Source: Clostridia bacterium (GTDB lineage Bacteria; Bacillota; Clostridia; UMGS1883). From it: DNA of 64,000 nucleotides. The notes beneath the pieces were generated by a model. The model had not been told where the DNA came from, did no database searches, and saw only the letters and a list, made by a program, of their open reading frames with translations. Below are positions 8,792-30,768 of the stretch, piece after piece (the first letter of the stretch is position 1; the number at the start of each line of letters is the position of its first letter). Position numbers and translations under genes: made by a program. Location: NCBI GenBank assembly GCA_017414645.1, contig JAFQLL010000017.1:6057-70056 (forward strand). Reading direction: 5' to 3'.

Positions 8792-10582
8792 ATGTGCGGA
8801 ATAGTTGGATATATAGGCGATAAGCTTGTTGCGCCCATTTTGCTTGAGGGGCTCAGCAAGCTCGAATACCGTGGCTACGACAGCGCAGGTATTGCCGTTT
8901 GTGACGAAAACGGTGTTACCATAGAAAAGGCTGTAGGCAAGCTGGAAAACCTTTACAAAAAAACAGACAACGGCACAACTATAAGCGGAACAAAGGGCAT
9001 TGGCCACACACGCTGGGCAACACATGGCAAGCCCACCGAGGAAAATGCTCATCCTCACAAAAGCGAAAGGTTTGTGCTTGTACATAACGGTATTATCGAA
9101 AACGAAGAATTCTTAAGAAGCAAGTACCTTAAGGGCGTTAACTTCGTTTCCGAAACAGATACCGAAATCATTCCCTGGCTTTTAGACAAGTTCACTCAGT
9201 CAGGTGAAGACACAGAAATGGCAATCCGCCATCTTATGAGCGAAATTGTGGGTAGCTATGCTTTAGCCATAATCGACCGCGAAAACCCCGACGTGCTCTA
9301 TGCAGTGAAGAATAAGTCGCCCCTTCTTATCGGTAAGGGCGAGGGCTTCAACATGATAGGCAGCGACTCTATGGCAATGATTGCAAACACAAACATGTTC
9401 TTCGAAATTCACGACAAGGAATATGTTGTTATAACAAAGGAAACTGTTAAAATCTACACTCAGTACGGCAAGCTTATTGACCGCGCACCCTTTAAGGCAG
9501 AGCTCGACCTTTCCGACACAGAAAAGGGCACCTACGCTCACTTCATGATTAAGGAAATTGAAGAACAGCCTGCTGTTATAAGAAGGCTTATCCAGAAGTA
9601 TGCCGACGAAAACGGCGACATTTCCGTTGACAAGGCAATTGTTAACGACATTCAGTCCTGCGACAAAATTTACATTATCGCATGCGGCACAAGCTACCAT
9701 GCAGGCCTCGTGGGTAAACAGCTTTTCGAAACAATGGCAAAGAAGCCCTGCGACAGCTACATTGCAAGCGAGTTTGTGCACAACACACCTCTTCTTAGCG
9801 AAAAGCCCTTCTTTATTTTCATTTCTCAGAGCGGCGAAACAGCCGACTCCAGAGCAGTTATGGTAAAGGTTAAGGCAATGGGCCACAAAATTCTTACCAT
9901 AACAAATGTAAAGGGCTCCACACTTTCCAGAGAAGCTAACTACACACTTTTGCTGCACGCAGGCCCCGAAATTGCCGTTGCATCCACAAAGGCATACACC
10001 GCACAGATTGCAGTGCTTGCAATTTTAGCCTCCACCGTTGCCAAAGAGCCCGGTCTCGACATTAAGTACGAGCTTTCCAAGGTGGCAAACGTTATCGAAA
10101 CCATCTGCTCCGAAAGCGAAACCTATAAGTATCTTGCTGAAAAGTATCTTAAGAATGCGCGCAATGCCTTCTATATAGGCAGATGCGTTGACTACTATGT
10201 GTGCCTCGAAGCGGCATTAAAGCTTAAGGAAATTTCCTACATTCAGGCAGAAGGCTTCGCCGCAGGCGAATTAAAGCATGGCACAATCGCCCTCATTGAA
10301 AAGGGCACACCTGTTATTGCAATTATCACACAGGAAAACATTAACCTCAACACACGAAGCAACATTGAAGAGGTAAAGGCGAGAGGTGCAAAAACACTTG
10401 TTATCTCCACAAGCTCACTTTCTTCTCATAACGACAAAATCGTTATCCGCGACGTGCATCCGCTTCTTGCGCCCATTGTTTCCGTTGTGCCCACACAGTA
10501 CATTGCATACTATGCAGCACTCTGCAAAGGCAGAGACATCGACAAGCCCAGAAACCTGGCAAAGAGCGTAACAGTTGAATAA
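8792..10582 (+). CDS. glmS: Glutamine--fructose-6-phosphate aminotransferase
   Basis: MCGIVGY N-terminal nucleophile, two SIS domains, C-terminal KSVTVE. Confidence 0.97.
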   Translation: MCGIVGYIGDKLVAPILLEGLSKLEYRGYDSAGIAVCDENGVTIEKAVGKLENLYKKTDNGTTISGTKGIGHTRWATHGKPTEENAHPHKSERFVLVHNGIIENEEFLRSKYLKGVNFVSETDTEIIPWLLDKFTQSGEDTEMAIRHLMSEIVGSYALAIIDRENPDVLYAVKNKSPLLIGKGEGFNMIGSDSMAMIANTNMFFEIHDKEYVVITKETVKIYTQYGKLIDRAPFKAELDLSDTEKGTYAHFMIKEIEEQPAVIRRLIQKYADENGDISVDKAIVNDIQSCDKIYIIACGTSYHAGLVGKQLFETMAKKPCDSYIASEFVHNTPLLSEKPFFIFISQSGETADSRAVMVKVKAMGHKILTITNVKGSTLSREANYTLLLHAGPEIAVASTKAYTAQIAVLAILASTVAKEPGLDIKYELSKVANVIETICSESETYKYLAEKYLKNARNAFYIGRCVDYYVCLEAALKLKEISYIQAEGFAAGELKHGTIALIEKGTPVIAIITQENINLNTRSNIEEVKARGAKTLVISTSSLSSHNDKIVIRDVHPLLAPIVSVVPTQYIAYYAALCKGRDIDKPRNLAKSVTVE

Positions 10583-10690
10583 TTAAGTAAAAAGGTCTGT
10601 TCAATAGAGCAGGCCTTTTCTTGTATAGAATTAAATAAAATACGGAACAATTTAAAAGGTGGAGAATAAACATATTATGAGGTGAAAATA

Positions 10691-10771
10691 GTGGCATATT
10701 TTTTTACTTTATCCTTAGGAGCTTTCATAGGAGCTGTAATTATGGGGCTTATTAAAGCTAACGAAAAATAG
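10691..10771 (+). CDS. Possible 26-aa hydrophobic peptide (VAYFFTLSLGAFIGAVIMGLIKANEK)
   Basis: GTG start 6 nt after GAGGTG; single predicted TM helix; ends in TAG. No homology evidence. Confidence 0.3.
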   Translation: MAYFFTLSLGAFIGAVIMGLIKANEK

Positions 10772-10789
10772 GAAAGTGTTTTAATATCA

Positions 10790-10996
10790 CAACCCCCTCT
10801 TCCGTTTGCGGTGCCCTGTATCAACTTCGCTAATCCGCTCGTTGATGACAGACCGCGGCACAGCTCTGCGCATTCGCTCAATCATCCACCGGATGCGCTC
10901 ATGCTCGATTCCCCCAATCTTGGGGGATGAAAAGGTGCACTTTCATTTTATAAGCAAACATGCACACATCTTGCGTGCATGTTCCAATATAATAGG
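10790..10996 (+). repeat. Structured intergenic repeat family, copy A
   Basis: Only 3 mismatches over the first ~148 nt against 30535-30737. Core shared with 26530-26660. Confidence 0.8.
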
Positions 10997-11015
10997 AAAA
11001 AGTTGAAAAAACATC

Positions 11016-11044
11016 TTGACAAAGCCCTGACCATTTGCTATAAT
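11016..11044 (+). promoter_or_regulatory. SigA promoter of tRNA operon (TTGACA-17-TATAAT)
   Basis: Perfect consensus hexamers, 30 nt upstream of the first tRNA. Confidence 0.8.
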
Positions 11045-11073
11045 AACAAAGGTCCTTGAAAAAAGGGTGATAT

Positions 11074-11147
11074 GCGGGTGTAGTTCATCGGTAGAATTCC
11101 AGCCTTCCAAGCTGGTTAGGTGGGTTCGACTCCCATCACCCGCTCCA
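11074..11147 (+). tRNA. tRNA-Gly(UCC)
   Basis: Cloverleaf folded by hand; anticodon loop CUUCCAA; encoded CCA. Confidence 0.9.
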
Positions 11148-11153
11148 AAATAC

Positions 11154-11230
11154 GTGCCTGTAGCTCAGCTGGATAGAGCAACTGCCTTCTAAGCAGTAGG
11201 TCCTGGGTTCGAGTCCCCGCAGGCACGCCA
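11154..11230 (+). tRNA. tRNA-Arg(UCU)
   Basis: Acceptor GTGCCTG/CAGGCAC; anticodon loop CUUCUAA; encoded CCA. Confidence 0.9.
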
Positions 11231-11267
11231 TTTTTTTATTCAGTGTCATTTCAAATGGCACTCATAT

Positions 11268-11345
<78 letters not shown>

Positions 11346-11417
11346 TTATTAAAAAAACAGGATCCGGTGATACCGGGGCTTCCGCGAACCGGTCTTGAGC
11401 GATTCGCTCTTTTATTT

Positions 11418-11493
11418 TGGACCGTAGCCAAGCGGTAAGGCACCGGACTTTGACTCCGGCATTTCGTGGGTTCAAATCCCGCCGGTCCAGCCA
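11418..11493 (+). tRNA. tRNA-Gln(UUG)
   Basis: Acceptor TGGACCG/CGGTCCA; anticodon loop CUUUGAC; encoded CCA. Confidence 0.88.
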
Positions 11494-11496
11494 CAT

Positions 11497-11572
11497 GGGA
11501 CACTAGCTCAGTCGGTAGAGCACTTGACTTTTAATCAAGTTGTCGGGGGTTCGATTCCCCCGTGTCTCACCA
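11497..11572 (+). tRNA. tRNA-Lys(UUU), integration target
   Basis: Anticodon arm CTTGA-CTTTTAA-TCAAG; T arm GGGGG-TTCGATT-CCCCC; encoded CCA. The 3' 46 nt are duplicated at 18742-18787. Confidence 0.92.
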
Positions 11573-11573
11573 A
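11527..11573 (+). repeat. attL core (47-bp direct repeat)
   Basis: Identical to 18742-18788. Confidence 0.9.
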
Positions 11574-11574
11574 A

Positions 11575-11606
11575 CCCTTGATTTCTTCGGAAATCAAGGG
11601 TTTTTT
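11575..11606 (+). terminator. Element-borne terminator now closing the tRNA operon
   Basis: CCCTTGATTTC-TTCG-GAAATCAAGGG followed by TTTTTT. Confidence 0.8.
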
Positions 11607-11679
11607 GTTGCCTTTGTTCCAGTCTGACTGAACACTTGATTTTTGAAATCTATAATAAAAATCAAGAGGGCAGAAAATT

Positions 11680-12609
11680 ATGAAAAAATTCAAAATGAAC
11701 ATCGGAAACACAGTAGCGGAAACTTTCGAGGATTTTATAATATCCCGAAAGGTAAAAGGATTGAGCGACAAAACACTAAAGACCTACAATCAACACTTTA
11801 AAGCCATAAGCCGCCATATCTCGGTTGATATTCCAATAGACACATTGAGTAAAGCCGACTTGGAGGAAATGGTTTCAAATATGCGCGAAGCGGCTCTTTC
11901 GGCAACTACAATAAGCAGTTATGTACGAACTATGAAAGCGTTTCTTTCTTGGTGCAATGAGGAAGATATAACAACACTCACAATTCAGAATTACAAATGC
12001 GCAGAAACAATAAAAGAAACGTACACCGACAAAGAGCTTGAAAAGCTACTTAAAAAACCAAATATCCGAAAGTGTCTTTTCTCCGAATACAGAACTTGGG
12101 TCATAATCAACTTGCTTGTGAATAATGGTTGCCGCGCGGCAACTGTACGAAACATCAAAAACAAAGATGTTGATTTAGAAAACTTCGTTATTTATTTAAG
12201 GCATACCAAAAGCAAAAAAGCACAAGTGATTCCATTGTGTACAGAACTTTGTTTAATACTCAAAGAGTATATGCGCATACGAAGCGGCTCGGAGGATGAT
12301 TTCCTTTTTCCAACAGAAGAAGGGACACAAATGAAAGAGTTTTGTTTGCGAAGCAGCATTGCAAGGTACAACAACAGGCGCGGCGTACAAAGAACAAGCA
12401 TACACGCATTCCGTCACACTTTCGCGCGCAAATACTTGGTTGACTGCGGCGGCAATGCTTTTACACTTCAACGCCTTTTGGGTCACTCCACATTAGAAAT
12501 GACAAAGCATTATTGCGCTATCTTCGACAGGGATATTGCAAAGAACTATGACCGCTTCTCTCCGCTTTCGCAACTTAAATCCAGTAGTAACCGCATTAAA
12601 ATGAAATAA
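11680..12609 (+). CDS. Tyrosine site-specific recombinase (phage integrase family)
   Basis: SAM-like N-domain. C-terminal catalytic residues in ...HAFRHTFAR...LLGHSTLEMTKHY. Confidence 0.9.
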   Translation: MKKFKMNIGNTVAETFEDFIISRKVKGLSDKTLKTYNQHFKAISRHISVDIPIDTLSKADLEEMVSNMREAALSATTISSYVRTMKAFLSWCNEEDITTLTIQNYKCAETIKETYTDKELEKLLKKPNIRKCLFSEYRTWVIINLLVNNGCRAATVRNIKNKDVDLENFVIYLRHTKSKKAQVIPLCTELCLILKEYMRIRSGSEDDFLFPTEEGTQMKEFCLRSSIARYNNRRGVQRTSIHAFRHTFARKYLVDCGGNAFTLQRLLGHSTLEMTKHYCAIFDRDIAKNYDRFSPLSQLKSSSNRIKMK

Positions 12610-12690
12610 GGTAAAACAAAATACAACAAGCCTCAACAAACTAAAACAAAGCAGTCTAAAGTATCAACTTTTGACTGCTTTTATTATCTT

Positions 12691-13722
12691 TTATTCAGTT
12701 TCGTATACGCTCTGTATTTTGGAAATGTATTCTTTCATTTGTTCTACAACGTGCGGCGGATTTTCTATCTTTGCCTTTTTGCCGAAGCCACAAAGCCATC
12801 CAAAGAATTGGTCACTTATTTCAACGTCTGCCGCCACTATAAAATGGTTTTTATCCTTTGCCATATAAAAGACATCAGACTCTGTTCCGAACCTTTCTAT
12901 GACAGTATCAAGAAGCGGATTGATGAAACGTATAACAACGTGTTCGCGAGTGCCGTTGAACATTGAAAAAACGCGGCGCGTGTATGTTGTTAAATCAATC
13001 TTTGCAAAAACTTCTTCTCCTTCTCTTGGCTCTGCGATTTCTCTGACATCTTTCATACGGTCAACACGATATGTACGGAAATCGTTCTTTTCACTATCAA
13101 AAGCCAAAAGGTAATAGTTGCCATCATTGATTAAAAGTTTAAAGGGACTTACTTTGTATGTGTTTCCCTTTTTACGTTCTACTTGTGAGTGAACATCATC
13201 TATTGTGTACTTTAGATATTTAAAGGTTATCTTTCGCGGCGTATGCGGCTTTCCGTTGCGTTTCTTTGCCATTGCATAGTTTATTCTGTCAATGATTTTT
13301 ATAATATGTTTTTCTGTGGTCTTAACCCTGTCGCACATAAAAACTTCTTTTTCTAATTCTTCGCGCTGATAAAAACTGCAGAACTTGCCTAAAGTTTCAA
13401 CAAGGTCTCTTGCTTGGGGTGCTGAAACAAACTTTGCCGCGCAAACACATTCAGCCAAAAGGCGTAATTCGTCATAGTCAAAATCACGCGATAAAAGCCT
13501 AAATCTGCCGCCTTGCATTCCGTCAATATCCATACCGAAAACATCTCTTAAAAGAGCTATATCGCGGTAAATTGCGCGCCTTTCCGCAACTATATCACAC
13601 TCATTTTTTAAATAGTCGCATATGCCTTTTTCAGTTGCTACTGGATGGTTTTCGTCCGAGTATTCAAGAAGGTATTTCGCAACGTATAATATTCGCAATT
13701 TTGTGATTTCGTTTTTTGGCAT
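12691..13722 (-). CDS. HTH + WYL-domain transcriptional regulator
   Basis: N-terminal wHTH; WYL-domain signature around YYLLAFD...FRTYRVDRM. Start set at ATG 13722 behind AAGAGG. Confidence 0.8.
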   Translation of the reverse strand: MPKNEITKLRILYVAKYLLEYSDENHPVATEKGICDYLKNECDIVAERRAIYRDIALLRDVFGMDIDGMQGGRFRLLSRDFDYDELRLLAECVCAAKFVSAPQARDLVETLGKFCSFYQREELEKEVFMCDRVKTTEKHIIKIIDRINYAMAKKRNGKPHTPRKITFKYLKYTIDDVHSQVERKKGNTYKVSPFKLLINDGNYYLLAFDSEKNDFRTYRVDRMKDVREIAEPREGEEVFAKIDLTTYTRRVFSMFNGTREHVVIRFINPLLDTVIERFGTESDVFYMAKDKNHFIVAADVEISDQFFGWLCGFGKKAKIENPPHVVEQMKEYISKIQSVYETE

Positions 13723-13794
13723 ATTAAAACCTCTTTCGTTAGTATAATAATATAATAACATCAACTTTGCAAAAATACAACGAAAAACAAATGT

Positions 13795-13838
13795 TTGACT
13801 TGATGCAAAAGTGTGGTATAATAACTATACCACACTTT
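13795..13838 (+). promoter_or_regulatory. Strong rightward promoter (TTGACT-16-TGgTATAAT) overlapped by a perfect 13-5-13 palindrome
   Basis: AAAGTGTGGTATA-ATAAC-TATACCACACTTT at 13808-13838 covers the -10 element. Divergent from the WYL gene promoter (TTGCAA-17-TATTAT on the minus strand). Confidence 0.65.
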
Positions 13839-14008
13839 CACTTTAATAATAAAACACCGAGCATTCTTGGGAATGTTCTGTTTTGCTATTCAAAAATATA
13901 CACATAAGCAAAGTTGTGTTTTGCAAAAAATGCGGCTTTAATATGTGCTTTGTTTGTGTGTATTATTGAGAGTGAATGTGTGGTAGCATAAATCTCCGCC
14001 GCGTTTTT

Positions 14009-14045
14009 ATGCGTGGTGACGATTTATGTTGCCACGCATTTTTTA
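14009..14045 (+). terminator. Terminator-like hairpin ~185 nt downstream of the 13795 promoter
   Basis: ATGCGTGG...CCACGCAT stem followed by TTTTTAATT. Confidence 0.5.
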
Positions 14046-14284
14046 ATTGCGTGAGAATTACGAAAGGAGATTTTGAGTTGAAAAAACGTAATGTCACCCA
14101 GTCCAAAAGTAGAAGCATGGGGCGGTATATTATGGGAGATAAAAAATCGAAAGTCATATTTTGATATATAGGAGGTCATTCCAATTTTGAAATGTGATTT
14201 TGATTTTGCCGTCTCCGACAAATCACACAATTAAAAAAGCACACTTATATTTCAAGGTGTGCAAACACAGAAAGGAAAATTATT

Positions 14285-15361
14285 ATGAAAAGAAATGTTT
14301 CTCTCTTATTGGCAGTAATACTCACATTGTTGAGCTTTTCGTCTGTTTCTGCTAAAGCAGATGGAAGCCTGTCTAATTTTCAAGCAGTACAAAGCTACAC
14401 AGAAGGTCAATTTACAGATGTTTCATCTTCTGCTTGGTATGCTCCTAACGTAAAATATACTTATGAAATTGGTTTGATGAATGGCAATAGTGATACAACA
14501 TTTAACCCTGACGGAAATATATTGCTTTCCGAAACTATTGCATTAGCAAGTCGTTTACATAGTATATATTATAATGGTGAGGCAAGTTTTGAAGCAAGTA
14601 CACCTTGGTATCAGTCTTATGTTGATTATGCAATAGATAATCGTATAATCGGTTCTGGCAAATATACATACTTTGATAAAGCAACAAGGGCAGATTTTGC
14701 TGAAATTATGGCAAAAGCTTTACCTTCAGAAGTATATAATAAAATCAATACTGTTGACGATGATGCTATTCCCGATGTTAAAACTGCAGCAAAATATTCC
14801 GATGCGGTATATACTCTTTACAGAGCAGGTATTGTAACAGGTAGCGATGCAGAAGGAACTTTTAATCCTACATCAAATATTAAACGCTCTGAAGTTGCTG
14901 CAATCGTATCCCGAATTGTTGATAAAACACAAAGAAAGTATATCACACTTAAATATGAAGTTTCCGAGACATATAAGTATTTTCCTGTTAAAACACTAAC
15001 TGCTGTAACTGGGGCTGAATGTAAGGATTCATATACGGGATATAGTATTCAGATAAACAATGGATACATTGAAGATAACAATACATTTAATTATGATGTT
15101 AAATCAGTATCAGATTATGATAGGTACTTTGTTCCTTATATAGAATACCTTGAATCAAATCCAAATGTTACAAGATATAGCAGCGACGGAATGGACCTTG
15201 GTGGTTTTACTAATGTTTCTTATACGTATAAATTAAATGATGGTAGCAATAAATACATAGATGTTTCATGGAATTATGGAGAATATACTAAAACCTATAG
15301 TATACGGGTATGGATGTATGGAATTAAGAACGGAAAAGTTGTTTGGATTCAGAATATGTAA
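14285..15361 (+). CDS. Secreted S-layer-homology (SLH) domain protein
   Basis: Signal peptide. SLH-like repeats (FTDVSSSAWYAPNVKY..., FNPDGNILLSE, FNPTSNIKRSEVAAIVSR). Confidence 0.75.
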   Translation: MKRNVSLLLAVILTLLSFSSVSAKADGSLSNFQAVQSYTEGQFTDVSSSAWYAPNVKYTYEIGLMNGNSDTTFNPDGNILLSETIALASRLHSIYYNGEASFEASTPWYQSYVDYAIDNRIIGSGKYTYFDKATRADFAEIMAKALPSEVYNKINTVDDDAIPDVKTAAKYSDAVYTLYRAGIVTGSDAEGTFNPTSNIKRSEVAAIVSRIVDKTQRKYITLKYEVSETYKYFPVKTLTAVTGAECKDSYTGYSIQINNGYIEDNNTFNYDVKSVSDYDRYFVPYIEYLESNPNVTRYSSDGMDLGGFTNVSYTYKLNDGSNKYIDVSWNYGEYTKTYSIRVWMYGIKNGKVVWIQNM

Positions 15362-15397
15362 ACAAAAAGAGTGGGATTTCCCACTCTTTTTGTTTAT

Positions 15398-15522
15398 GTT
15401 CGTAAAGGTACACCTTTAGAAACAGGCAAAAAGGGCGTGTTTTCCTTGTTCGTAAAATATTAAAAATTATTTGCGAATATGTTCGTAAAATTGTTGACAT
15501 TTGCGAACAGCGGAGGTATAAT
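15398..15522 (+). promoter_or_regulatory. res-like repeat cluster plus TTGACA-17-TATAAT promoter of the serine recombinase
   Basis: GTTCGTAAA at 15398, 15448 and 15481. Inverted TTTGCGAA(C) at 15470 and 15500. -35 at 15494-15499, -10 at 15517-15522. Confidence 0.6.
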
Positions 15523-15551
15523 ATAGCTATAATCAACAAGGGGGCAATACA

Positions 15552-16160
15552 ATGGAAACACGTACTTACTATTATGCGAGAGTATCAAGCAAGGAACAAA
15601 ACCTTGACAGACAGATTGAGGCTTTCAAAGCTCTTGGAGCTGATGAAAGAGATATTATAACAGACAAGGAAAGCGGCAAGGACTTGAACCGCACAGGCTA
15701 TACCGCATTAAAAAATGCAATGCTCCGAAAAGGCGATACGCTTGTTGTAAAATCTCTTGACCGTCTTTCAAGAAACAAAGCAGACATTAAAAACGAACTG
15801 CAATTCTTTAAAGATAACGGCATCCGTTTAAAAGTTATCGACTTGCCAACAACAATGATGGAATTGCCAGTAGGTCAAGAATGGGTGTTTGAAATGGTAA
15901 ACAACATCTTGATTGAGGTTTTGGGAACAATCGCAGAACAAGAGCGCGAGACAATCAAAAAAAGACAAGCTGAAGGTATCGAAGCGGCAAAGAAAAACGG
16001 CAAGCGTTTGGGGCGTCCCGCACTTGTTTTTCCGCAGAATTGGAAGCAAGTGTATGCTGACTGGCAAGAAGGTAAAATTACCGCCAAAACTGCAATGGAA
16101 TTGACCGATACCAAGAGAACAAGTTTTTATAAGTTAGTGCAAATGACTGAAGGCAAATAA
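15552..16160 (+). CDS. Small serine recombinase (resolvase/invertase family)
   Basis: YYARVSSKEQNLDRQ catalytic-Ser motif; C-terminal HTH; 202 aa. Confidence 0.9.
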   Translation: METRTYYYARVSSKEQNLDRQIEAFKALGADERDIITDKESGKDLNRTGYTALKNAMLRKGDTLVVKSLDRLSRNKADIKNELQFFKDNGIRLKVIDLPTTMMELPVGQEWVFEMVNNILIEVLGTIAEQERETIKKRQAEGIEAAKKNGKRLGRPALVFPQNWKQVYADWQEGKITAKTAMELTDTKRTSFYKLVQMTEGK

Positions 16161-16192
16161 AAAAGACGGGAGGCGTTGACCTCTCGTCTTTG
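16161..16192. terminator. Bidirectional terminator between convergent genes
   Basis: AAGACGGGAGG-CGTTGA-CCTCTCGTCTT. Confidence 0.65.
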
Positions 16193-16196
16193 AGTT

Positions 16197-16595
16197 TTAT
16201 ATTAAAGTGTTCAATACATCTTTTGCATTGACCTTGACCACATCAAATAGTCTCCAATCTTCTACTTTTGGAATCTATGTATTAAGAAGCGGCTTGTATT
16301 GTCTGATGTATTCTCCTTCTTTGTTTCCAATTTCATCATCAATAGCATAATACCCCTAACTGCTTGCATAATAAAGAACATCAAAGTTAATTGAATGCCC
16401 TTTCCTTTGCGCCTCGGACAGTATGCGGTATTTCAATTCGCTTTCGCATTTTATACCGACATAGTGTTGCGCCACGCGTTTTAGCATATTCTGACTTTTG
16501 CCGATGTAAACAATCTATTCATCGACCTTTATACAGTAAATGCCTGCGTGCTCGTATTTTGGTGCAAGACCTTGTCTTTTCAAGTAATTATACAT
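16197..16595 (-). pseudogene. GIY-YIG nuclease-like gene with three in-frame TAG codons (pseudogene or amber-recoded)
   Basis: Hand translation gives MYNYLKRQGLAPKYEHAGIYCIKVDE*IVYIGKSQNML...YYASS*GYYAIDDE...LLNT*IPKVEDW...LI, ending in TAA. TAG at 16515-17, 16356-58 and 16275-77. RBS GAGG. Confidence 0.7.
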
Positions 16596-16612
16596 ATTAA
16601 CCTCGTAGCTCA

Positions 16613-17176
16613 TTAGAATACAAACCCCTTTTCTTTTGGTTCTCTTTGCGGTCTTGGTATGACAATCTCTTTTACTTTTGGAACTTCTATGACTGCTTTC
16701 TGTTGGTTATTCTCTCCGTTATTTGTTTTATTATTTGTTATAATATTATCTATTTCTATACTACTGGGGTCAATTAAATTGTTGGCAGGCTCTTCTTCTT
16801 GAACGTTTCCCGTATTCTCAAAATCGCGAGCCGACAAATTATTTTTTAATTGAGCGCCACGCGCCTGAGGTACTTCGTAAAAATCAAAAGTATTGCTTCC
16901 AGTTTCGACCAAATAGCCTTTGTTAATTAGAATTTTTAACTGGTCGCGATAGGTGGAACGCGCCATCCCTATGGATAGGTTGACCGCTTCGGGCGAAAGC
17001 GCAAACGTATAGTTGTCTGCATTTGCCGCAAAATATAAGTAAAGAGAAAAGGCATATGGCTACAAATCTTTAATGGCATTTTGCCAATTCTCATTCTTGA
17101 TACCTAAAAAATCATTTGTAATTTTTTGTCTGTGAACCCGAACCATTCTTTGGTTCGGATAACTTATTCTTGCCAT
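16613..17176 (-). pseudogene. Winged-helix, replication-initiator-like protein gene with one in-frame TAG
   Basis: MARISYPNQRMV...NAIKDL*PYAFSLYLYFAANADNYTFALSPEAVNLSIGMARSTYRDQLKILINKGYLV... TAG at 17060-17062. The track ORF 16613..16966 is only the distal part. Ends in TAA. Confidence 0.65.
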
Positions 17177-17180
17177 AATT

Positions 17181-17366
17181 TTATCGTCCTTTCGTTGTAT
17201 CTTTTAATGGTTTGAAAATCTTATCAAGTGATTGTTCGATAATTTCTTCAAACTGTTTTTCTATGCCGATGGTATAGAATATTCTTTTGCGCTCCTTTTG
17301 GAGAATCTCGTGCGGTTGCAGATTGTCTTTCTTATATTCTGCATATCTCTAAATTGCGGATTTCAT
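17181..17366 (-). pseudogene. 61-codon small gene with one in-frame TAG at codon 6
   Basis: AGGAGG 8 nt upstream of ATG 17366. MKSAI*RYAEYKKDNLQPHEILQKERKRIFYTIGIEKQFEEIIEQSLDKIFKPLKDTTKGR. The TAA is 4 nt before the next ATG. Confidence 0.5.
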
Positions 17367-17486
17367 TATAAAATCCTCCTTTCATTTTTACTTTCTATAA
17401 TTATTATACAAAAATTTTTTATAAAAATCAAAGTGAGGCGAAGCGGTACTCGTTAAAAAAAGAGTTTGTTCTATGTGAACAAACTC

Positions 17487-17927
17487 TCATCCGTTAGCTG
17501 CTTCTGCTTTTGTTTCGTACTCGTCAATATTAGGTTCGGGTACAGGAAAAGCAGCAATATTCTTGGGTTCAAAATCGGGTAATTCTTTATACGTGGGGAA
17601 CTGCGCGTTGAACCAATCGCAAACATACTTGTAGGGGCAAGCCAAGGGCGCAGACTTTGCTTTTATAGTCTCGAAGCGGCTTAAGAGCTCGTTAGCGTTT
17701 GCAAATGTGTTAATGTACTTTTCCATATTTTCATAGGTTAAACGCTTGTTGTAGCGCGGTTTTTTCTGTTCTCTGCCGGACTTAACAATTACGCTAAAAT
17801 TGGGAAAATCACTTAATATGCTCTTGCGAATATTGTATTCTTCCGAGCCGTAAACGGAAGCCGCCGCGGCAAACTTAAAATTCATAATCAATGTGTTTGT
17901 TGTGAAATCAATCTTATATCCTGTCAT
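17487..17927 (-). CDS. Hypothetical protein, paralogue B of a tandem pair
   Basis: 146 aa. Shares the Y(E/D)NMEKYI ... PYKYV(C/L)DWFN blocks with 17943..18380. Confidence 0.7.
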   Translation of the reverse strand: MTGYKIDFTTNTLIMNFKFAAAASVYGSEEYNIRKSILSDFPNFSVIVKSGREQKKPRYNKRLTYENMEKYINTFANANELLSRFETIKAKSAPLACPYKYVCDWFNAQFPTYKELPDFEPKNIAAFPVPEPNIDEYETKAEAANG

Positions 17928-17942
17928 TGTAATATCCTCCTA

Positions 17943-18380
17943 TTATTTATTAACTGCATTATTGAACGGAACAACGTTTTCTTGTTCATTTGTCTTTTCT
18001 TCTTTGAAAATATCATGTGTTTCATAGCCTTTGAATGTTTCGTTGAACCAATCCAAAACATACTTATAGGGGTTCTTTTGGATTGCGGAAGCGGCTTTTA
18101 CCTTTTCAAACGTTACAAGATATGCCGCACTATCTTTGCCGCAAGCTGTCTTAATGTACTTTTCCATATTATCGTATGTGCGGTTCCTGTTTGTTTTCTT
18201 GTCGGGATTCTTCTTAATGCTCTTGGTTCTCATTTCAGCGTTGGGGTATCTTGTAATGAACTGTTCCCACATTTCGTATTCAGCTGAACCAAAGATTCTT
18301 GCATTTTTCATAAATGCCTTTGTTACCTGACCTACTACTGTTCCGTTTGTGTTTCTAATTACTGTAATCTGATTTTTCAT
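17943..18380 (-). CDS. Hypothetical protein, paralogue A of a tandem pair
   Basis: Start set at ATG 18380 (MKNQITVIRN) behind AAGGAGG. Shared blocks with 17487..17927. Confidence 0.7.
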   Translation of the reverse strand: MKNQITVIRNTNGTVVGQVTKAFMKNARIFGSAEYEMWEQFITRYPNAEMRTKSIKKNPDKKTNRNRTYDNMEKYIKTACGKDSAAYLVTFEKVKAASAIQKNPYKYVLDWFNETFKGYETHDIFKEEKTNEQENVVPFNNAVNK

Positions 18381-18741
18381 AATGAAAAACCTCCTTAAAA
18401 AAATTTTATTATTTAGAGTTTTGAGAGTTTGTTTATCTCTGTTCTCTATGGCTTTATTATAGCAGGCGCATAAGAAAAAGTTGTACCACAAATAGAACAA
18501 GTGAAAAATAATAAAAAACTTTTTTAGTATAAAACAGTACCAGAAACTTAATAAAAGTTGATGATTTGTTCTAATTAGAAGCGGCTTGAAAAAACTTGTT
18601 GACTTTTGGATAAGTTTGATCTAACATAATCTTATCAAGAATTAAGTGTGCAGTTTGGCTTTAAAATCAACGAGAGCATACGAAGAATGCCGATGAAATC
18701 GGGGTTTGCAAGGTGTCATCAATTTGCCTGAAAGGCAAATC

Positions 18742-18788
18742 ACTTTTAATCAAGTTGTCGGGGGTTCGATTCCCCCGTGTCTCACCAA
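18742..18788 (+). repeat. attR core (47-bp direct repeat = 3' part of tRNA-Lys)
   Basis: Identical to 11527-11573. Confidence 0.9.
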
Positions 18789-18797
18789 CATAAAAGG

Positions 18798-19663
18798 CAC
18801 TTGCAGTAGCAAGTGCCTTTTATGTTGGCAAGATGTGGGATATATCCCACACACTTAATAAAGTGCAATACCGACTGAGCGTGCGAAGGAGGGAGTAACG
18901 GAGTCCGACCGCGCCCGGTGGGCGATGCAGGGAGCACGCAAAGGCTGTGCCGCAACACAATGAAACAAGCCACATGCTGTGCGGCGCAGTTGAATTGATG
19001 TTGCAAACGTAAACGACCGTTTGGGTTCCGCTCTCCAAAACGGAATGGGATAAAAATCACTTGCAGTAGCAAGTGCCTTTTATGTTGGTAAGATGTGGGA
19101 TACATCCCACACACTTAATATAGTGTAATACCGACTGAGCGTGCGAAGGAGGGAGAACTGCGTAGCGACCGCCTCCTGCGGAGGATGAAGGGAGCACGCA
19201 AAGGCTGTGCCGAGGTCGAAGTAGCCGAGCGAGATAGCGAGGATACGAGGGCACCTCAAACGTAAACGACCGTTTGGGTTCCGCTCTCCAAAACGGAATG
19301 GGATAAAAATCACTTGCAGTAGCAAGTGCCTTTTATGTTGGCAAGATGTGGGATATATCCCACACACTTAATAAAGTGCAATACCGACTGAGCGTTGCGA
19401 AGGAGGTAGTAACGGAGTCCGACCGCGCCCGGTGGGCGATGCAGGGAGGACGACGGGCTGTGCCGCAACACAATGAAACAAGCCGCATGCTGTGCGGCGC
19501 AGTTGAATTGATGTTGCAAACGTAAACGACCGTTTGGATTCCGCTCTCCAAAACGGAATGGGATAAAAATCACTTGCAGTAGCAAGTGCCTTTTATGTTG
19601 GCAAGATGTGGGATATATCCCACACACTTAATAAAGTGCAATACCGACTGAGCGTGCGAAGGA
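18798..19663 (+). repeat. Tandem array, 3.3 copies of a 253-260-bp structured unit
   Basis: Unit-initial hairpin CACTTGCAGTAGCAAGTG at 18798, 19058, 19311 and 19571. Conserved 5' and 3' blocks flank a ~100-nt variable block. Confidence 0.9.
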
Positions 19664-19687
19664 ACATTTACTCCTGTTTGAAAAAAA

Positions 19688-19708
19688 CACTTGATTAAAA
19701 GTCAAGTG
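19688..19708 (+). other. Inverted copy of the tRNA-Lys anticodon stem-loop
   Basis: CACTTGATTAAAAGTCAAGTG is the reverse complement of 11521-11540 (20/20 nt). Lies 20 nt upstream of the 19729 ATG. Confidence 0.8.
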
Positions 19709-19728
19709 GCTGTTGAGGTGAAAAACCT

Positions 19729-20247
19729 ATGCAAAAAATTCTCATTATCGGCTCACCGGGGAGCGGTAAAAGCACCTTTGGACGCCGTCTTAGCAAAAAA
19801 CTTAATATTCCTTTGGTACATCTCGATTCTCTTTTCTGGAAGGCCGGCTGGGTTGAAAGCGAGAGGGAAGAGTTTGACACACTTTTATTAAGTGAGCTTA
19901 AAAAGGATAAATGGATAATTGACGGCAACTATTCCCGCACTATGGAAATGCGCCTTAAATATGCCGACACTGTAATCTTCTTCGATTATAACCGTTTTTT
20001 GTGCCTGTGGCGCGTTATAAAGCGCGTTGTAACAAATTACGGGAAAGTACGCTTTGACATGCCAAAGGGCTGCCCTGAACGGTTTGATTGGGAATTTTTA
20101 AAGTATGTGTACAAGTTTAACGATAAACAAAGGGCAGATATTTATAAAAAATTATCGACAAATCCCCATACAAGGGTTATAATTATTAAGAACAGGAAAG
20201 ATTTTAGAAGAATGGAAAAGGAAATATATGAAAAATCCGGACTTTGA
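19729..20247 (+). CDS. P-loop NTPase (adenylate-kinase-like / topology-modulation family)
   Basis: Walker A GSPGSGKST; ~170 aa kinase-like layout. Confidence 0.75.
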   Translation: MQKILIIGSPGSGKSTFGRRLSKKLNIPLVHLDSLFWKAGWVESEREEFDTLLLSELKKDKWIIDGNYSRTMEMRLKYADTVIFFDYNRFLCLWRVIKRVVTNYGKVRFDMPKGCPERFDWEFLKYVYKFNDKQRADIYKKLSTNPHTRVIIIKNRKDFRRMEKEIYEKSGL

Positions 20248-20812
20248 ATTTATATTTCATGCAGTAGTGTTTTTTTGTATAGTCGTAGCATTATTGTTGT
20301 ATATTTGGATTGAATGGATATATCCGCTGAATGTGAAGAGGCGTATAAAAAAGCTGGAAAGGTATGAAACTGCGTCATTTGCTGAATACAAAACAAGTTT
20401 TATGGGATATTTGGGGACACTTGGACCATTGCTGCTGTGCGTAGTTCTTCTCATGGTGGGAATTGTGGGAGTTGCCCCCGAGAAACGTGTGAGCTGGGAA
20501 TATGGTTTTTTAATAACGCTATCAGCTGTGGGGACAATGTGGTTCATATTTAAGCTGATTTACATATTGCCAAGACGATATTTTAAGTGGGAAAATAACG
20601 TTATATATTATCATACAGGATTGCGGGAAAAGGTTATTACAGAAATTAAGCATATATTTAGACACAGTCCCGGCAGGACTAATTATTTCTCTGTAGAAAT
20701 TTGGGAAGATAAGAAGCCAAATATTTATGTAGATATTTTATCTTTACAACACCCGAAAAAGATTTATTCAATTTTAAAGGTTAAATCAAAAGCAGAGCAT
20801 GAGTTTTATTAG
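20228..20812 (+). CDS. Hypothetical membrane protein
   Basis: 194 aa with 3-4 hydrophobic helices; overlaps the upstream gene end. Confidence 0.55.
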   Translation: MKNPDFEFIFHAVVFFCIVVALLLYIWIEWIYPLNVKRRIKKLERYETASFAEYKTSFMGYLGTLGPLLLCVVLLMVGIVGVAPEKRVSWEYGFLITLSAVGTMWFIFKLIYILPRRYFKWENNVIYYHTGLREKVITEIKHIFRHSPGRTNYFSVEIWEDKKPNIYVDILSLQHPKKIYSILKVKSKAEHEFY

Positions 20813-20837
20813 TGAACTAAAATAAGGAGCTGACATT

Positions 20838-21518
20838 ATGAAATATCGTTACGAAACACATTGCCACACAAAGCCCGTAAGCGCATGCGGTCATGCAACT
20901 GTACGTGAAACGTTGGAGTTTTACAAAAGCTTAGGCTATGATGGCGTTTTTATAACAAACCACTTTTTAGACGGTAACATCGGAATAGACTGGAACACAC
21001 CCGTTACAGAAAAGCTTGACTTTTATTTTTCAGACTACGAGGAAGGCGTAAAAATAGCCGAGGAAATTGGCATTAAGGTTTTCCTTGGTGTTGAAATGAG
21101 CTATGGCGGCACCGACTTTCTTGTTTTCGGGCTGGATAAAAAATGGTGGTATGACCACATTGACATTCTGCAGGAAAGGAAAAGCCGACAGCTGCCATAT
21201 TTCATGAGTGAGGGCGCTTTAGTGGTGCAGGCGCACCCCTTCCGTGAAGCAGGCTATATCGACCACATCCGCCTTTTTCCCCGTGGGGTAGAGGGTGTTG
21301 AGGTTATGAACGCCGACAGAACCGACTTTGAAAACCACATGGCAAACCTCTATGCCGAGGAATACGGCCATTTGAAAACAGCAGGCAGCGACAACCACTG
21401 GGCAAGCGGTGCAAAGCGCCTTGCAGGCTTGGAATGTGACGAAGCTGTTGACAGCGTAGAGGATTTTATAAAAAAGCTCCGCGACGGCAAAATGAGCATT
21501 TTTACAGTGGAAAGGTGA
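20838..21518 (+). CDS. PHP-domain phosphoesterase
   Basis: N-terminal ETHCHT metal motif; later HP...H and GSDNH motifs. Confidence 0.8.
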   Translation: MKYRYETHCHTKPVSACGHATVRETLEFYKSLGYDGVFITNHFLDGNIGIDWNTPVTEKLDFYFSDYEEGVKIAEEIGIKVFLGVEMSYGGTDFLVFGLDKKWWYDHIDILQERKSRQLPYFMSEGALVVQAHPFREAGYIDHIRLFPRGVEGVEVMNADRTDFENHMANLYAEEYGHLKTAGSDNHWASGAKRLAGLECDEAVDSVEDFIKKLRDGKMSIFTVER

Positions 21519-21683
21519 AGTTTTGAACCATGTTCAAAGTGAAGTTGTTTCTTACGAAACAGTGAAGTTTTACGTTTTACGTAAAGTGAAGTTAAGTTTG
21601 CACTATGCCGTAAGGCATAACTTCACTTGCAAAGCAAACTTCACTGCGAAAGCAACTTCACTTGCCTGAAAGGCAAACTTAAT
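21515..21683 (+). repeat. GTGAAGTT/AACTTCAC 'ladder' element, copy 2
   Basis: GTGAAGTT at 21515, 21539, 21562 and 21586. Central ATGCC-GTAA-GGCAT. AACTTCAC at 21619, 21637 and 21654, degenerate at 21676. Confidence 0.8.
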
Positions 21684-26414: not shown

Positions 26415-26529
26415 AAGTGCGTGTCGAAAAGTCGACACGCGACAAAAAATCTTGCTTGTGGCAATCTTTTTTGTCAATACTTTTTGAGGAACAAAGTGAC
26501 GATTTTGCGTGCAAGGGGCTTGAGATTAT

Positions 26530-26660
26530 CCGTTTGCGGTGCCCGACAACAACGTCTTTCAGCCGGTGTTTGTCGACCGCGGCACAACTCTACACTCTCG
26601 CTTCATCGTCCACAGGACGCGCTCGAGCTCGATTCCCTAAAATCGGCACTTTTGGAGTGG
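26530..26660 (+). repeat. Structured intergenic repeat family, divergent copy C
   Basis: Shares CCGTTTGCGGTGCCC...GACCGCGGCACA...GCGCTC..GCTCGATTCCC with copies A and B. Hairpins are kept through compensatory changes. Confidence 0.65.
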
Positions 26661-30534: not shown

Positions 30535-30737
30535 CAACCCCCTCTTCCGTTTGCGGTACCCTGTATCAACTTCGCTAATCCGCTCGTTGATGACAGACCG
30601 CGGCACAGCTCTGCGCATTCGCTCAATCATCCACTGGATGCGCTCATGCTCGATTCCCCCAATCTTGGGGGACGAAAAGGTAAGCTTTTATTTCATAAGC
30701 AAATATGCGCACATTCTGCGCGCAATTTCCTATATGA
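30535..30737 (+). repeat. Structured intergenic repeat family, copy B
   Basis: Near-identical to copy A over ~148 nt, then alignable with compensatory hairpin changes. Confidence 0.8.
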
Positions 30738-30768
30738 TAAAAACAGCGTGGAGAATTACTCCACGCTG
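30737..30768 (-). terminator. Terminator of the RHS operon
   Basis: Minus strand: CAGCGTGGAG-TAAT-TCTCCACGCTG followed by TTTTTAT. Confidence 0.65.

Follow-up and report, generated by a model that had tools for sequence, protein, structure and literature searches.

In Escherichia coli, the last tRNA gene of the tyrT-tyrV operon is directly followed by the rtT (RttR) array, in which a unit of 178 bp, starting in the tRNA 3' end, occurs 3.1 times behind tyrV. Other small elements are structured, arrayed or bound to tRNA genes. REP, BIME and REPIN, ERIC, RUP, Correia and the bcr1 repeat of Bacillus cereus are small structured intergenic repeats or elements resembling miniature inverted-repeat transposable elements (MITEs). 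Integrase-less cis-mobilisable elements (CIMEs) and islands accrete at tRNA or tmRNA att sites. Integron attC sites (57–141 nt) conserve structure over sequence, work as folded single-stranded DNA and are arrayed, and casposons make 14–15-bp target duplications, often at tRNA 3' ends. CTXphi and other Xer-dependent elements integrate via a folded single-stranded attP (PMC3089051, PMC3442271). Here, we describe a tandem array of 866 bp in a stretch of 64 kb from a Clostridia bacterium (contig JAFQLL010000017.1, positions 6,057–70,056; the whole stretch is called the window). The array lies at 18798–19663, directly 3' of an attR copy of tRNA-Lys, and each full unit contains a structured core of ~120 nt, called S in the following.

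Copies of S occur in uncultured Oscillospirales and in phages of these bacteria, as a multi-copy family of small structured repeats that is polymorphic for insertion. In our reading, S is a mobile non-coding structured repeat, and the array is probably a local tandem amplification of a composite module at the tRNA-Lys 3' flank. The family matches nothing in Rfam 15, PLSDB, INPHARED or the searched literature. In Rfam 15, only tRNA and 5S rRNA were found (E ≤5 over 10500–21000, and gathering score on seven loci). The array gave no blastn match in PLSDB and INPHARED (tested for a plasmid or phage origin), two pattern scans of JGI metagenomes found nothing, and a literature search with the core motifs returned chance primer matches only.

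The rtT array had been named as a possible analogue in the first-pass annotation of this locus, and its layout is as stated there. Both arrays run head to tail directly after the last tRNA gene of an operon, and the units of both are non-coding or nearly so. However, the window array has no rtT match (Rfam, same range and E-value) and no sequence relationship to it. The rtT unit differs further in that, as far as tested, it has neither dispersed copies nor an inverted tRNA copy. The annotation of rtT is that of a transcribed small RNA.

Tandem Repeats Finder identified a single tandem array at 18790–19663 with a period of 260, 3.4 copies and 83% matches. The hairpin CACTTGCAGTAGCAAGTG begins at 18798, 19058, 19311 and 19571, and four hits were reached in 0 of 100 shuffles. 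Both results agree with the unit starts and lengths first proposed. The position directly after attR also held. The array and its parts are as follows.

11497–11572, plus strand: intact tRNA-Lys(UUU), last gene of the Gly-Arg-His-Gln-Lys operon, attL side (ARAGORN; Rfam tRNA, 73 bits).
18742–18787, plus strand: attR, exact 46-nt copy of tRNA-Lys positions 31–76 (blastn-short, 46/46).
18780–18833, no strand assigned: terminator palindrome with 25-nt arms, 92% complementary, terminator-like on both strands (terminator scan).
18798–19057, plus strand: unit 1, 260 bp.
18816–18893, minus strand: inverted degenerate tRNA-Lys of unit 1 (z = 12.1 against tRNA-Lys, 3.8 against tRNA-Asn), recurring in units 2, 3 and 4.
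18866–19015, plus strand: S core copy 1, type A (covariance model R1, 130.6 bits).
19058–19310, plus strand: unit 2, 253 bp, with a type-B S core at 19126–19268.
19311–19570, plus strand: unit 3, 260 bp, 97% identical to unit 1, with a type-A S core at 19379–19528.
19571–19663, plus strand: partial unit 4, 93 bp, terminator and inverted pseudo-tRNA only; it stops where S-core homology would start.

Units 1 and 3 share their variable block and are identical at 253 of 261 positions. Unit 2 has a different block and is about 81% identical to either (217/266 to unit 1 and 214/268 to unit 3), as had been noticed before.

Each unit is a composite of a terminator, an inverted and decayed tRNA-Lys, the ~120-nt S core and a decayed direct remnant of the tRNA-Lys 3' end. 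The idea that the unit is one conserved RNA had to be given up: the first ~95 nt are terminator and inverted tRNA-Lys, and only the middle ~120 nt are structured. The palindrome is centred on the terminator loop and connects the tRNA 3' end to the start of the inverted pseudo-tRNA. It spans the last 12–14 nt of the tRNA and the terminator, and beyond it the inverted copy is degenerate. In a sister species (L020), the palindrome arms are perfect over 33 nt. The terminator stem does resemble the anticodon stem of tRNA-Lys, as was pointed out earlier. This is probably incidental, because the stem in a related species is GGCATCTGC/GCAGGTGCC.

The two conserved blocks of the first description occur once per unit. 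The palindrome of that description is the T arm of the inverted tRNA, with the remnant GTGGGATATATCCCAC at 18835–18850, and the block "CCGACTGAGC" is its D arm. The D-arm block TACCGACTGAGC (18869–18880) is the exact reverse complement of tRNA positions 10–21 in every unit (short-word BLAST). Between them lies the anticodon-arm remnant CACTTAATAAAGTG (18852–18865). In alignments against shuffles, the inverted segments of the window and of the sister species L014 reached z = 10–13 to tRNA-Lys and 2–4 to tRNA-Asn. The inverted segments in four metagenome-assembled genomes (MAGs; L001–L004), whose units lie at tRNA-Asn loci, resemble tRNA-Asn (z = 9–13) and not tRNA-Lys. A real tRNA on the minus strand was rejected, as ARAGORN finds none and the acceptor halves are unpaired by eye. 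The unit 3' end is a T-arm-like remnant; in the better-preserved L018, L020 and L003, it is a direct partial tRNA copy.

The S core is ~115–130 nt long. It forms a long interrupted hairpin (helix 2 and an apical 5-bp stem), and a second helix closes a variable hairpin. In type-A copy 1, the apical hairpin is CGCCC-GGT-GGGCG (18912–18924), the variable hairpin is CTGTGCCGCA/TGCGGCGCAG (18945–54/18980–89) and the closing helix is GCAACA/TGTTGC (18952–57/18999–19004). The type-B core of unit 2 has CCTCC/GGAGG (CCTCC-TGC-GGAGG, 19172–19184) and GAGGT/ACCTC. The hairpins named at first reading lie at the coordinates given.

The fold has three covarying helices. Across 32 distinct copies, 94.4% of cells were in standard pairs, compared with 33–60% in controls in which the 3' partners were slid by one to three columns. 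Changes on both sides were seen in 19 of 25 pairs (5–11 in the slid controls), and the covariation score was 0.45 (≤0.08 in the slid controls). Fitting the alignment to the model works in favour of the structure, yet the distance from the controls is wide; the pairing picture was the same in a set of 16 sequences. Hence, the covariation suspected from units 1 to 3 is real, and much stronger than those units could reveal. The apical stem occurs as CGCCC/GGGCG, CCTCC/GGAGG, CGTCC/GGACG, CATCC/GGATG, CTGCC/GGCAG and CCGCC/GGCGG, the closing helix as GCGGT/ACCGC, GAGGT/ACCTC and GCAAC/GTTGC. Only 2 of about 480 cells in helices 2–4 were G-U. This near-absence fits DNA pairing, or a fold on both strands, at least as well as an RNA fold, and better than a typical RNA. 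A hammerhead, a group II intron, an IS200/IS605 end, an integron attC site and a casposon were dropped because their defining motifs are lacking in the sequences read.

The array does not code for protein. Its three minus-strand open reading frames (ORFs; 110, 95 and 105 aa) matched no Pfam family, and unit lengths of 260 and 253, neither divisible by 3, prevent them from sharing a frame. The absence of a plausible ORF had been proposed at the outset. Independent small-RNA genes were rejected as well, since the array has no sigma-70-type promoter on either strand.

Model R1 finds six S copies in the 64 kb. Three are in the array, and three are dispersed, none of them at the tRNA 3' end:

10797–10928, minus strand: S core X1 (R1, 68 bits), between a 26-aa ORF and the promoter of the tRNA operon.
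26525–26660, minus strand: S core X2 (R1, 69 bits), downstream of a trpR-like gene.
30542–30673, minus strand: S core X3 (R1, 66 bits), between two co-oriented genes.

X3 is nearly identical to X1, including ~110 nt of flank. In the sister species L014 and L016, the X1 site is without S and reads ...TTGGGGGA-CC-GAGGGGGTTG..., and the window is ~125 bases longer. For X2, no empty site could be read, as the intergenic region of L014 was not alignable. The flanks of X1 and X3 (10929–11010 and 30674–30760; ~110 nt) are a repeat of their own, with a hairpin TGCACGCAAGATGTGTGCA, TTGCTTATAAAATGAAAG and a hairpin CCCCCAAGATTGGGGG. This flank repeat occurs in L014 without S.

The covariance model search, which had been suggested for related genomes, returned copies in the window, in related MAGs and in viral contigs, and the stems keep pairing in them. 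Four MAGs (three Faecousia and one Clostridia) contain an exact copy of a 22-mer of the unit, in every case downstream of a tRNA-Asn gene or its 3' fragment. In L002, it lies ~90 nt past tRNA-Asn, directly after tRNA and terminator, and in L004 ~90 nt past a 45-nt tRNA-Asn 3' fragment. In L001 and L003, it lies 1.3–2.2 kb from tRNA-Asn, behind gene cassettes or earlier units; L003 has two tandem units and a third beyond a small gene cassette. The units of L002, L003 and L004 are flanked by 20–27-nt direct repeats of the tRNA-Asn 3' end. In L018, a single unit has a 3' fragment of tRNA-Lys on either side (a repeat of 20 nt, one mismatch, with an exact core of 12 nt). A unit in a viral contig (L030) is flanked by a 15-nt direct repeat of a tRNA-like 3' end.

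Other relatives carry fewer units or none at the tRNA-Lys operon. L014, whose AAA_18 protein is 78% identical, has a single type-B unit, and its tRNA-operon segment is inverted between glmS and AAA_18. L020 has one A and one B unit. R1 also finds S in L014, L018 and L020. The more distant L022 and L023 (GlmS 87% and 82% identical) have the same operon with an ordinary terminator and no unit.

A second type of repeat was seen in the window (21520–21680) and in three of the MAGs (L001 6250–6440 and 5290–5350, L002 820–960, L003 1050–1240). An 8–9-mer (GTGAAGTT in the window; AGTTATATT, AATGATGA and GATTTCAC elsewhere) is repeated three to four times with small GC hairpins in between and then follows inverted. 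In the MAG loci, it lies downstream of tRNA-Asn, upstream of a conserved promoter-like CTTGCGCCTCCACCACTTTTATGATATAAT and small gene cassettes.

Pattern scans of IMG/VR gave 19 loci, and R1 confirms about 20 S copies in viral contigs. Phage S copies also form 113-nt tandem dimers just upstream of the small terminase gene, on the strand of the terminase genes, and in one case an S is nested in another S. In three phage contigs, S lies inside an ORF (L045 6800–7000, L034 3800–4000, L044 5700–5900), between a Prp protease domain (PF04327) and a scaffold-like protein, flanked by two copies of DLQ(M/L)FA. The inserts are 135, 141 and 150 nt long and keep the frame open. Among 27 related phage loci, S is present in two, and the other 25 have MVDLQ(L/M)FA once, without S. 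In the alignment, the filled loci show a duplication of TTGCAGATGTTTGC(AG), 14–16 bp long. We infer that the S-encoded peptide of 45–50 aa is removed together with the leader; the insertion would therefore be harmless, like the duplication of a tRNA 3' end. The Prp-scaffold copy is possibly a mobile element hiding in a cleaved leader peptide, with the F|A cleavage motif duplicated.

Two further repeats were seen in the phage contigs. An AT-rich intergenic region (e.g. L025 1885–2110; L024–L026) has CCGACTGAGCGAAGCGAAGGAGG, mini-hairpins of the GCGAAGC type and a 44-nt tandem duplication. L024–L026 match a degenerate block-A pattern but reach only 24 bits with the model, a weak similarity to S. 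A GC-rich short repeat (…CCCCGCCCCTACGGA… and variants) clusters beside phage S copies (L035 6360–6530, L040 4640–4810, L031 9940–10240).

The mobility of S shows in the existence of both filled and empty sites, namely at the phage Prp-scaffold gene, the X1 site and the tRNA-Lys flank. The units would have entered the tRNA flank by an insertion that duplicates or rebuilds 14–27 nt of the target. As direct repeats of the tRNA 3' end bound the better-preserved tRNA-linked units, the tRNA remains intact. Subtypes A and B would be old paralogues, and the array would go back to old A and B insertions at the tRNA-Lys flank, both types being present in sister species. The 3.3 copies could have arisen by unequal homologous recombination between the ~95-bp repeats of terminator and pseudo-tRNA, or by repeated insertion. 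The reason for keeping the fold would be that the element passes through a folded single strand when it propagates, with a helper enzyme acting in trans. Given the strict Watson–Crick pairing, the folded strand would most likely be DNA.

Several observations weigh against this reading. The comparison at X1 gives no clean target duplication, and most dispersed copies, X1–X3 included, have no direct repeat of at least 9 nt within 90 nt. Neither terminal inverted repeats of the transposase type nor conserved termini were seen when the insert termini were compared by eye, without statistics. In the window units, decay of the direct tRNA remnant has gone too far for it to prove insertion at this site. 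The analysis identified no helper recombinase, HUH protein or reverse transcriptase. Unit number differs between assemblies of the species, as the first-pass annotation had thought worth checking (3.3 units in the window, 1.3 in L005 and in L007, 0.3 in L008), but all are short-read metagenome assemblies in which tandem repeats can collapse, so the lower counts could be collapse. The units of L005 and L007 are chimeras of units 1 and 3. Finally, the conserved structure with its variable hairpin expansions also fits an RNA with a function in the host, and in all 12 units compared the tRNA-sense strand, which is G-rich, has the lower RNA minimum free energy.

The last two points belong to the alternative that fares best. 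In this alternative, transcription of the tRNA-sense strand would yield the S core as a functional RNA, either a cis element in read-through or untranslated regions (stabiliser, insulator, termination or antitermination) or a multi-copy small-RNA family, and the array would be a set of rtT-like RNA modules. We consider this unlikely. The covariation in three helices would be expected of it, as would hairpin insertions of variable length at fixed positions (L002, L003a) and the conserved U-G pair that the sequence of the type-A variable hairpin shows on the tRNA-sense strand. Five of the six window copies lie behind a terminator and are oriented like the gene upstream, and the phage dimers precede terminase genes on the same strand. 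Moreover, no promoter belonging to the downstream AAA_18 gene (19729) could be recognised in the 66 nt that follow the array. However, the array itself has no promoter, and folding z-scores are weak (−0.3 to −3.2 overall; −0.3 and −1.4 for the window unit). The scarcity of G-U pairs is unusual for RNA families, and in phages S lies within a protein-coding frame. S is also absent at orthologous sites of close relatives, and therefore any function is dispensable.

Much less probable are neutral relics, in which integrase-borne islands repeatedly integrated and decayed at tRNA-Lys, att remnants were duplicated by slippage and the hairpins are without function. Hot spots of integration lie at tRNA 3' ends, this tRNA does carry an island, and tandem tRNA 3' fragments occur at the Asn loci. 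Units 1 and 3 differ at only eight positions, and the last duplication is therefore recent. Against such a history, the ~120-nt core also occurs at non-tRNA sites and in phages, the compensatory changes in the helices are far above the slid controls, and the resident island shares no sequence with the units. That the assembler inflated one unit is very unlikely: several contigs of the species do break or collapse at the locus and assemblies with 0.3 and 1.3 units exist, but units 1, 2 and 3 differ in sequence and hence are not one repeat read three times, and a separate metagenome assembly from another sample (L006), which lacks the island, has the identical 866 nt with 0 differences. The array is genuine.

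As a mobile structured repeat, S is best set beside the small intergenic elements named at the beginning. Like MITE- and REP-type repeats, it is ~100–150 nt long, non-coding, multi-copy, intergenic and hairpin-forming, often sits behind a terminator, occurs in tandem or nested and is present or absent between close relatives. Unlike them, S has no terminal inverted repeats, and its fold has three helices with variable arms instead of one palindrome. Its target duplications, where seen, are long and variable (10–27 nt): the direct repeats flanking some copies are 10, 15, 16, 19 or 20–27 nt long, without a fixed length. Furthermore, S can carry a copy of the target tRNA in both orientations.

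With CIME accretion, S shares tandem units that lack an integrase, lie beside a resident island and are each enclosed by direct repeats of the tRNA 3' end. These repeats (T loop to CCA) were seen in L002, L003, L004, L018 and L030; the direct copy of the window units has decayed beyond recognition. The differences are the size of the units (250–550 bp), the absence of genes, the presence of the core at non-tRNA sites and the inverted target copy. From attC sites and casposons, S differs in having no R/L box consensus by eye in the sequences read and in lacking terminal inverted repeats; the stretches examined showed no Cas1 or IntI gene.

The comparison with CTXphi concerns the mechanism. Two opposite target-like sites can form a target-mimicking hairpin in CTXphi and might do so in S units, and integrated copies of both stand in tandem arrays. 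Such an integration would result in the order that the units show, with a direct repeat, a loop, an inverted copy, the cargo and a second direct repeat. The targets of S are tRNA 3' ends and a phage gene and not dif/XerCD, and there are no Rep or phage genes. By this analogy, S units might integrate via a target-mimicking hairpin, which we find doubtful because the phage gene has no inverted target copy, the long stem is not the preferred DNA fold and no helper enzyme was found. For an inter-unit segment (L003, 655–860), the predicted DNA fold consists mainly of the terminator and local hairpins.

We also put forward, with low confidence, a broader proposal. S could form a new class of non-autonomous mobile DNA, moving in the shape of a folded single strand, with the three-helix core as the handle for the helper. 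It would carry a copy of its target so that insertion rebuilds the interrupted gene, and the arrays would be the integrated, replication-competent form. For tRNA targets, the folded strand would carry both orientations and form the hairpin mimic; the rebuilt gene may be a tRNA 3' end or a protease-cleaved leader peptide. As a variant, S may be an RNA-templated bacterial retro-element, similar to short interspersed nuclear elements, with target duplications of variable length and 5'-variable copies.

The surroundings of the array include an island and a further piece of tRNA-Lys:

11573–18741, no strand assigned: integrated island of ~7.2 kb with a tyrosine integrase (11680–12609), a WYL regulator and a resolvase (Pfam).
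19689–19708, minus strand: inverted tRNA-Lys anticodon arm, exact copy of positions 25–44 (blastn-short, 20/20), followed by a T run on the minus strand.

Integration of the island took place in the anticodon loop of tRNA-Lys and is marked by a 46-nt repeat. In L006, an assembly of the same species, the island is absent and tRNA-Lys abuts the array. An origin of the array from the resident island was rejected, as the island ends have no sequence in common with the units. The island integrase has its crossover in the anticodon loop (the 46-nt core) and not in the T loop, and no other candidate integrase was identified. The WYL regulator is of the WYL/WCX type, and the island also encodes an SLH-like surface protein (the latter judged by eye from the translation). 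The inverted anticodon arm at 19689–19708 with its TTTTTTT, between the array and AAA_18, is perhaps a relic att half-site or a minus-strand terminator.

The segment with a small ORF, the promoter, the five tRNAs and the units is inverted between glmS and AAA_18 in sister species (window ~10600–19700 compared with L014 6830–8000, L016, L017 and L020). The small ORF (10691–10771, plus strand, 3' of glmS) encodes a conserved hydrophobic peptide of 26 aa (VAYFFTLSLGAFIGAVIMGLIKANEK) behind a strong ribosome-binding site; L014 and L017 have the ORF too. Its product may be a small membrane protein or resemble a type I toxin peptide. X1 ends 26 nt past the stop codon of the ORF, on the opposite strand.

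If S is a mobile structured repeat, it would represent an undescribed family that is common in uncultured gut Oscillospirales and their phages. Strict Watson–Crick covariation in three helices, target-preserving insertion, target-specific inverted tRNA copies and a tendency to form tandem arrays would be its unusual traits. There is a modest chance that the mobility mechanism itself is new, and S could reveal an uncharacterised helper recombination system. In annotation, the covariance model would be a direct means to mask or catalogue these repeats. S elements would mark, and probably shape, integration hot spots in these genomes, and they would break short-read assemblies at tRNA loci.

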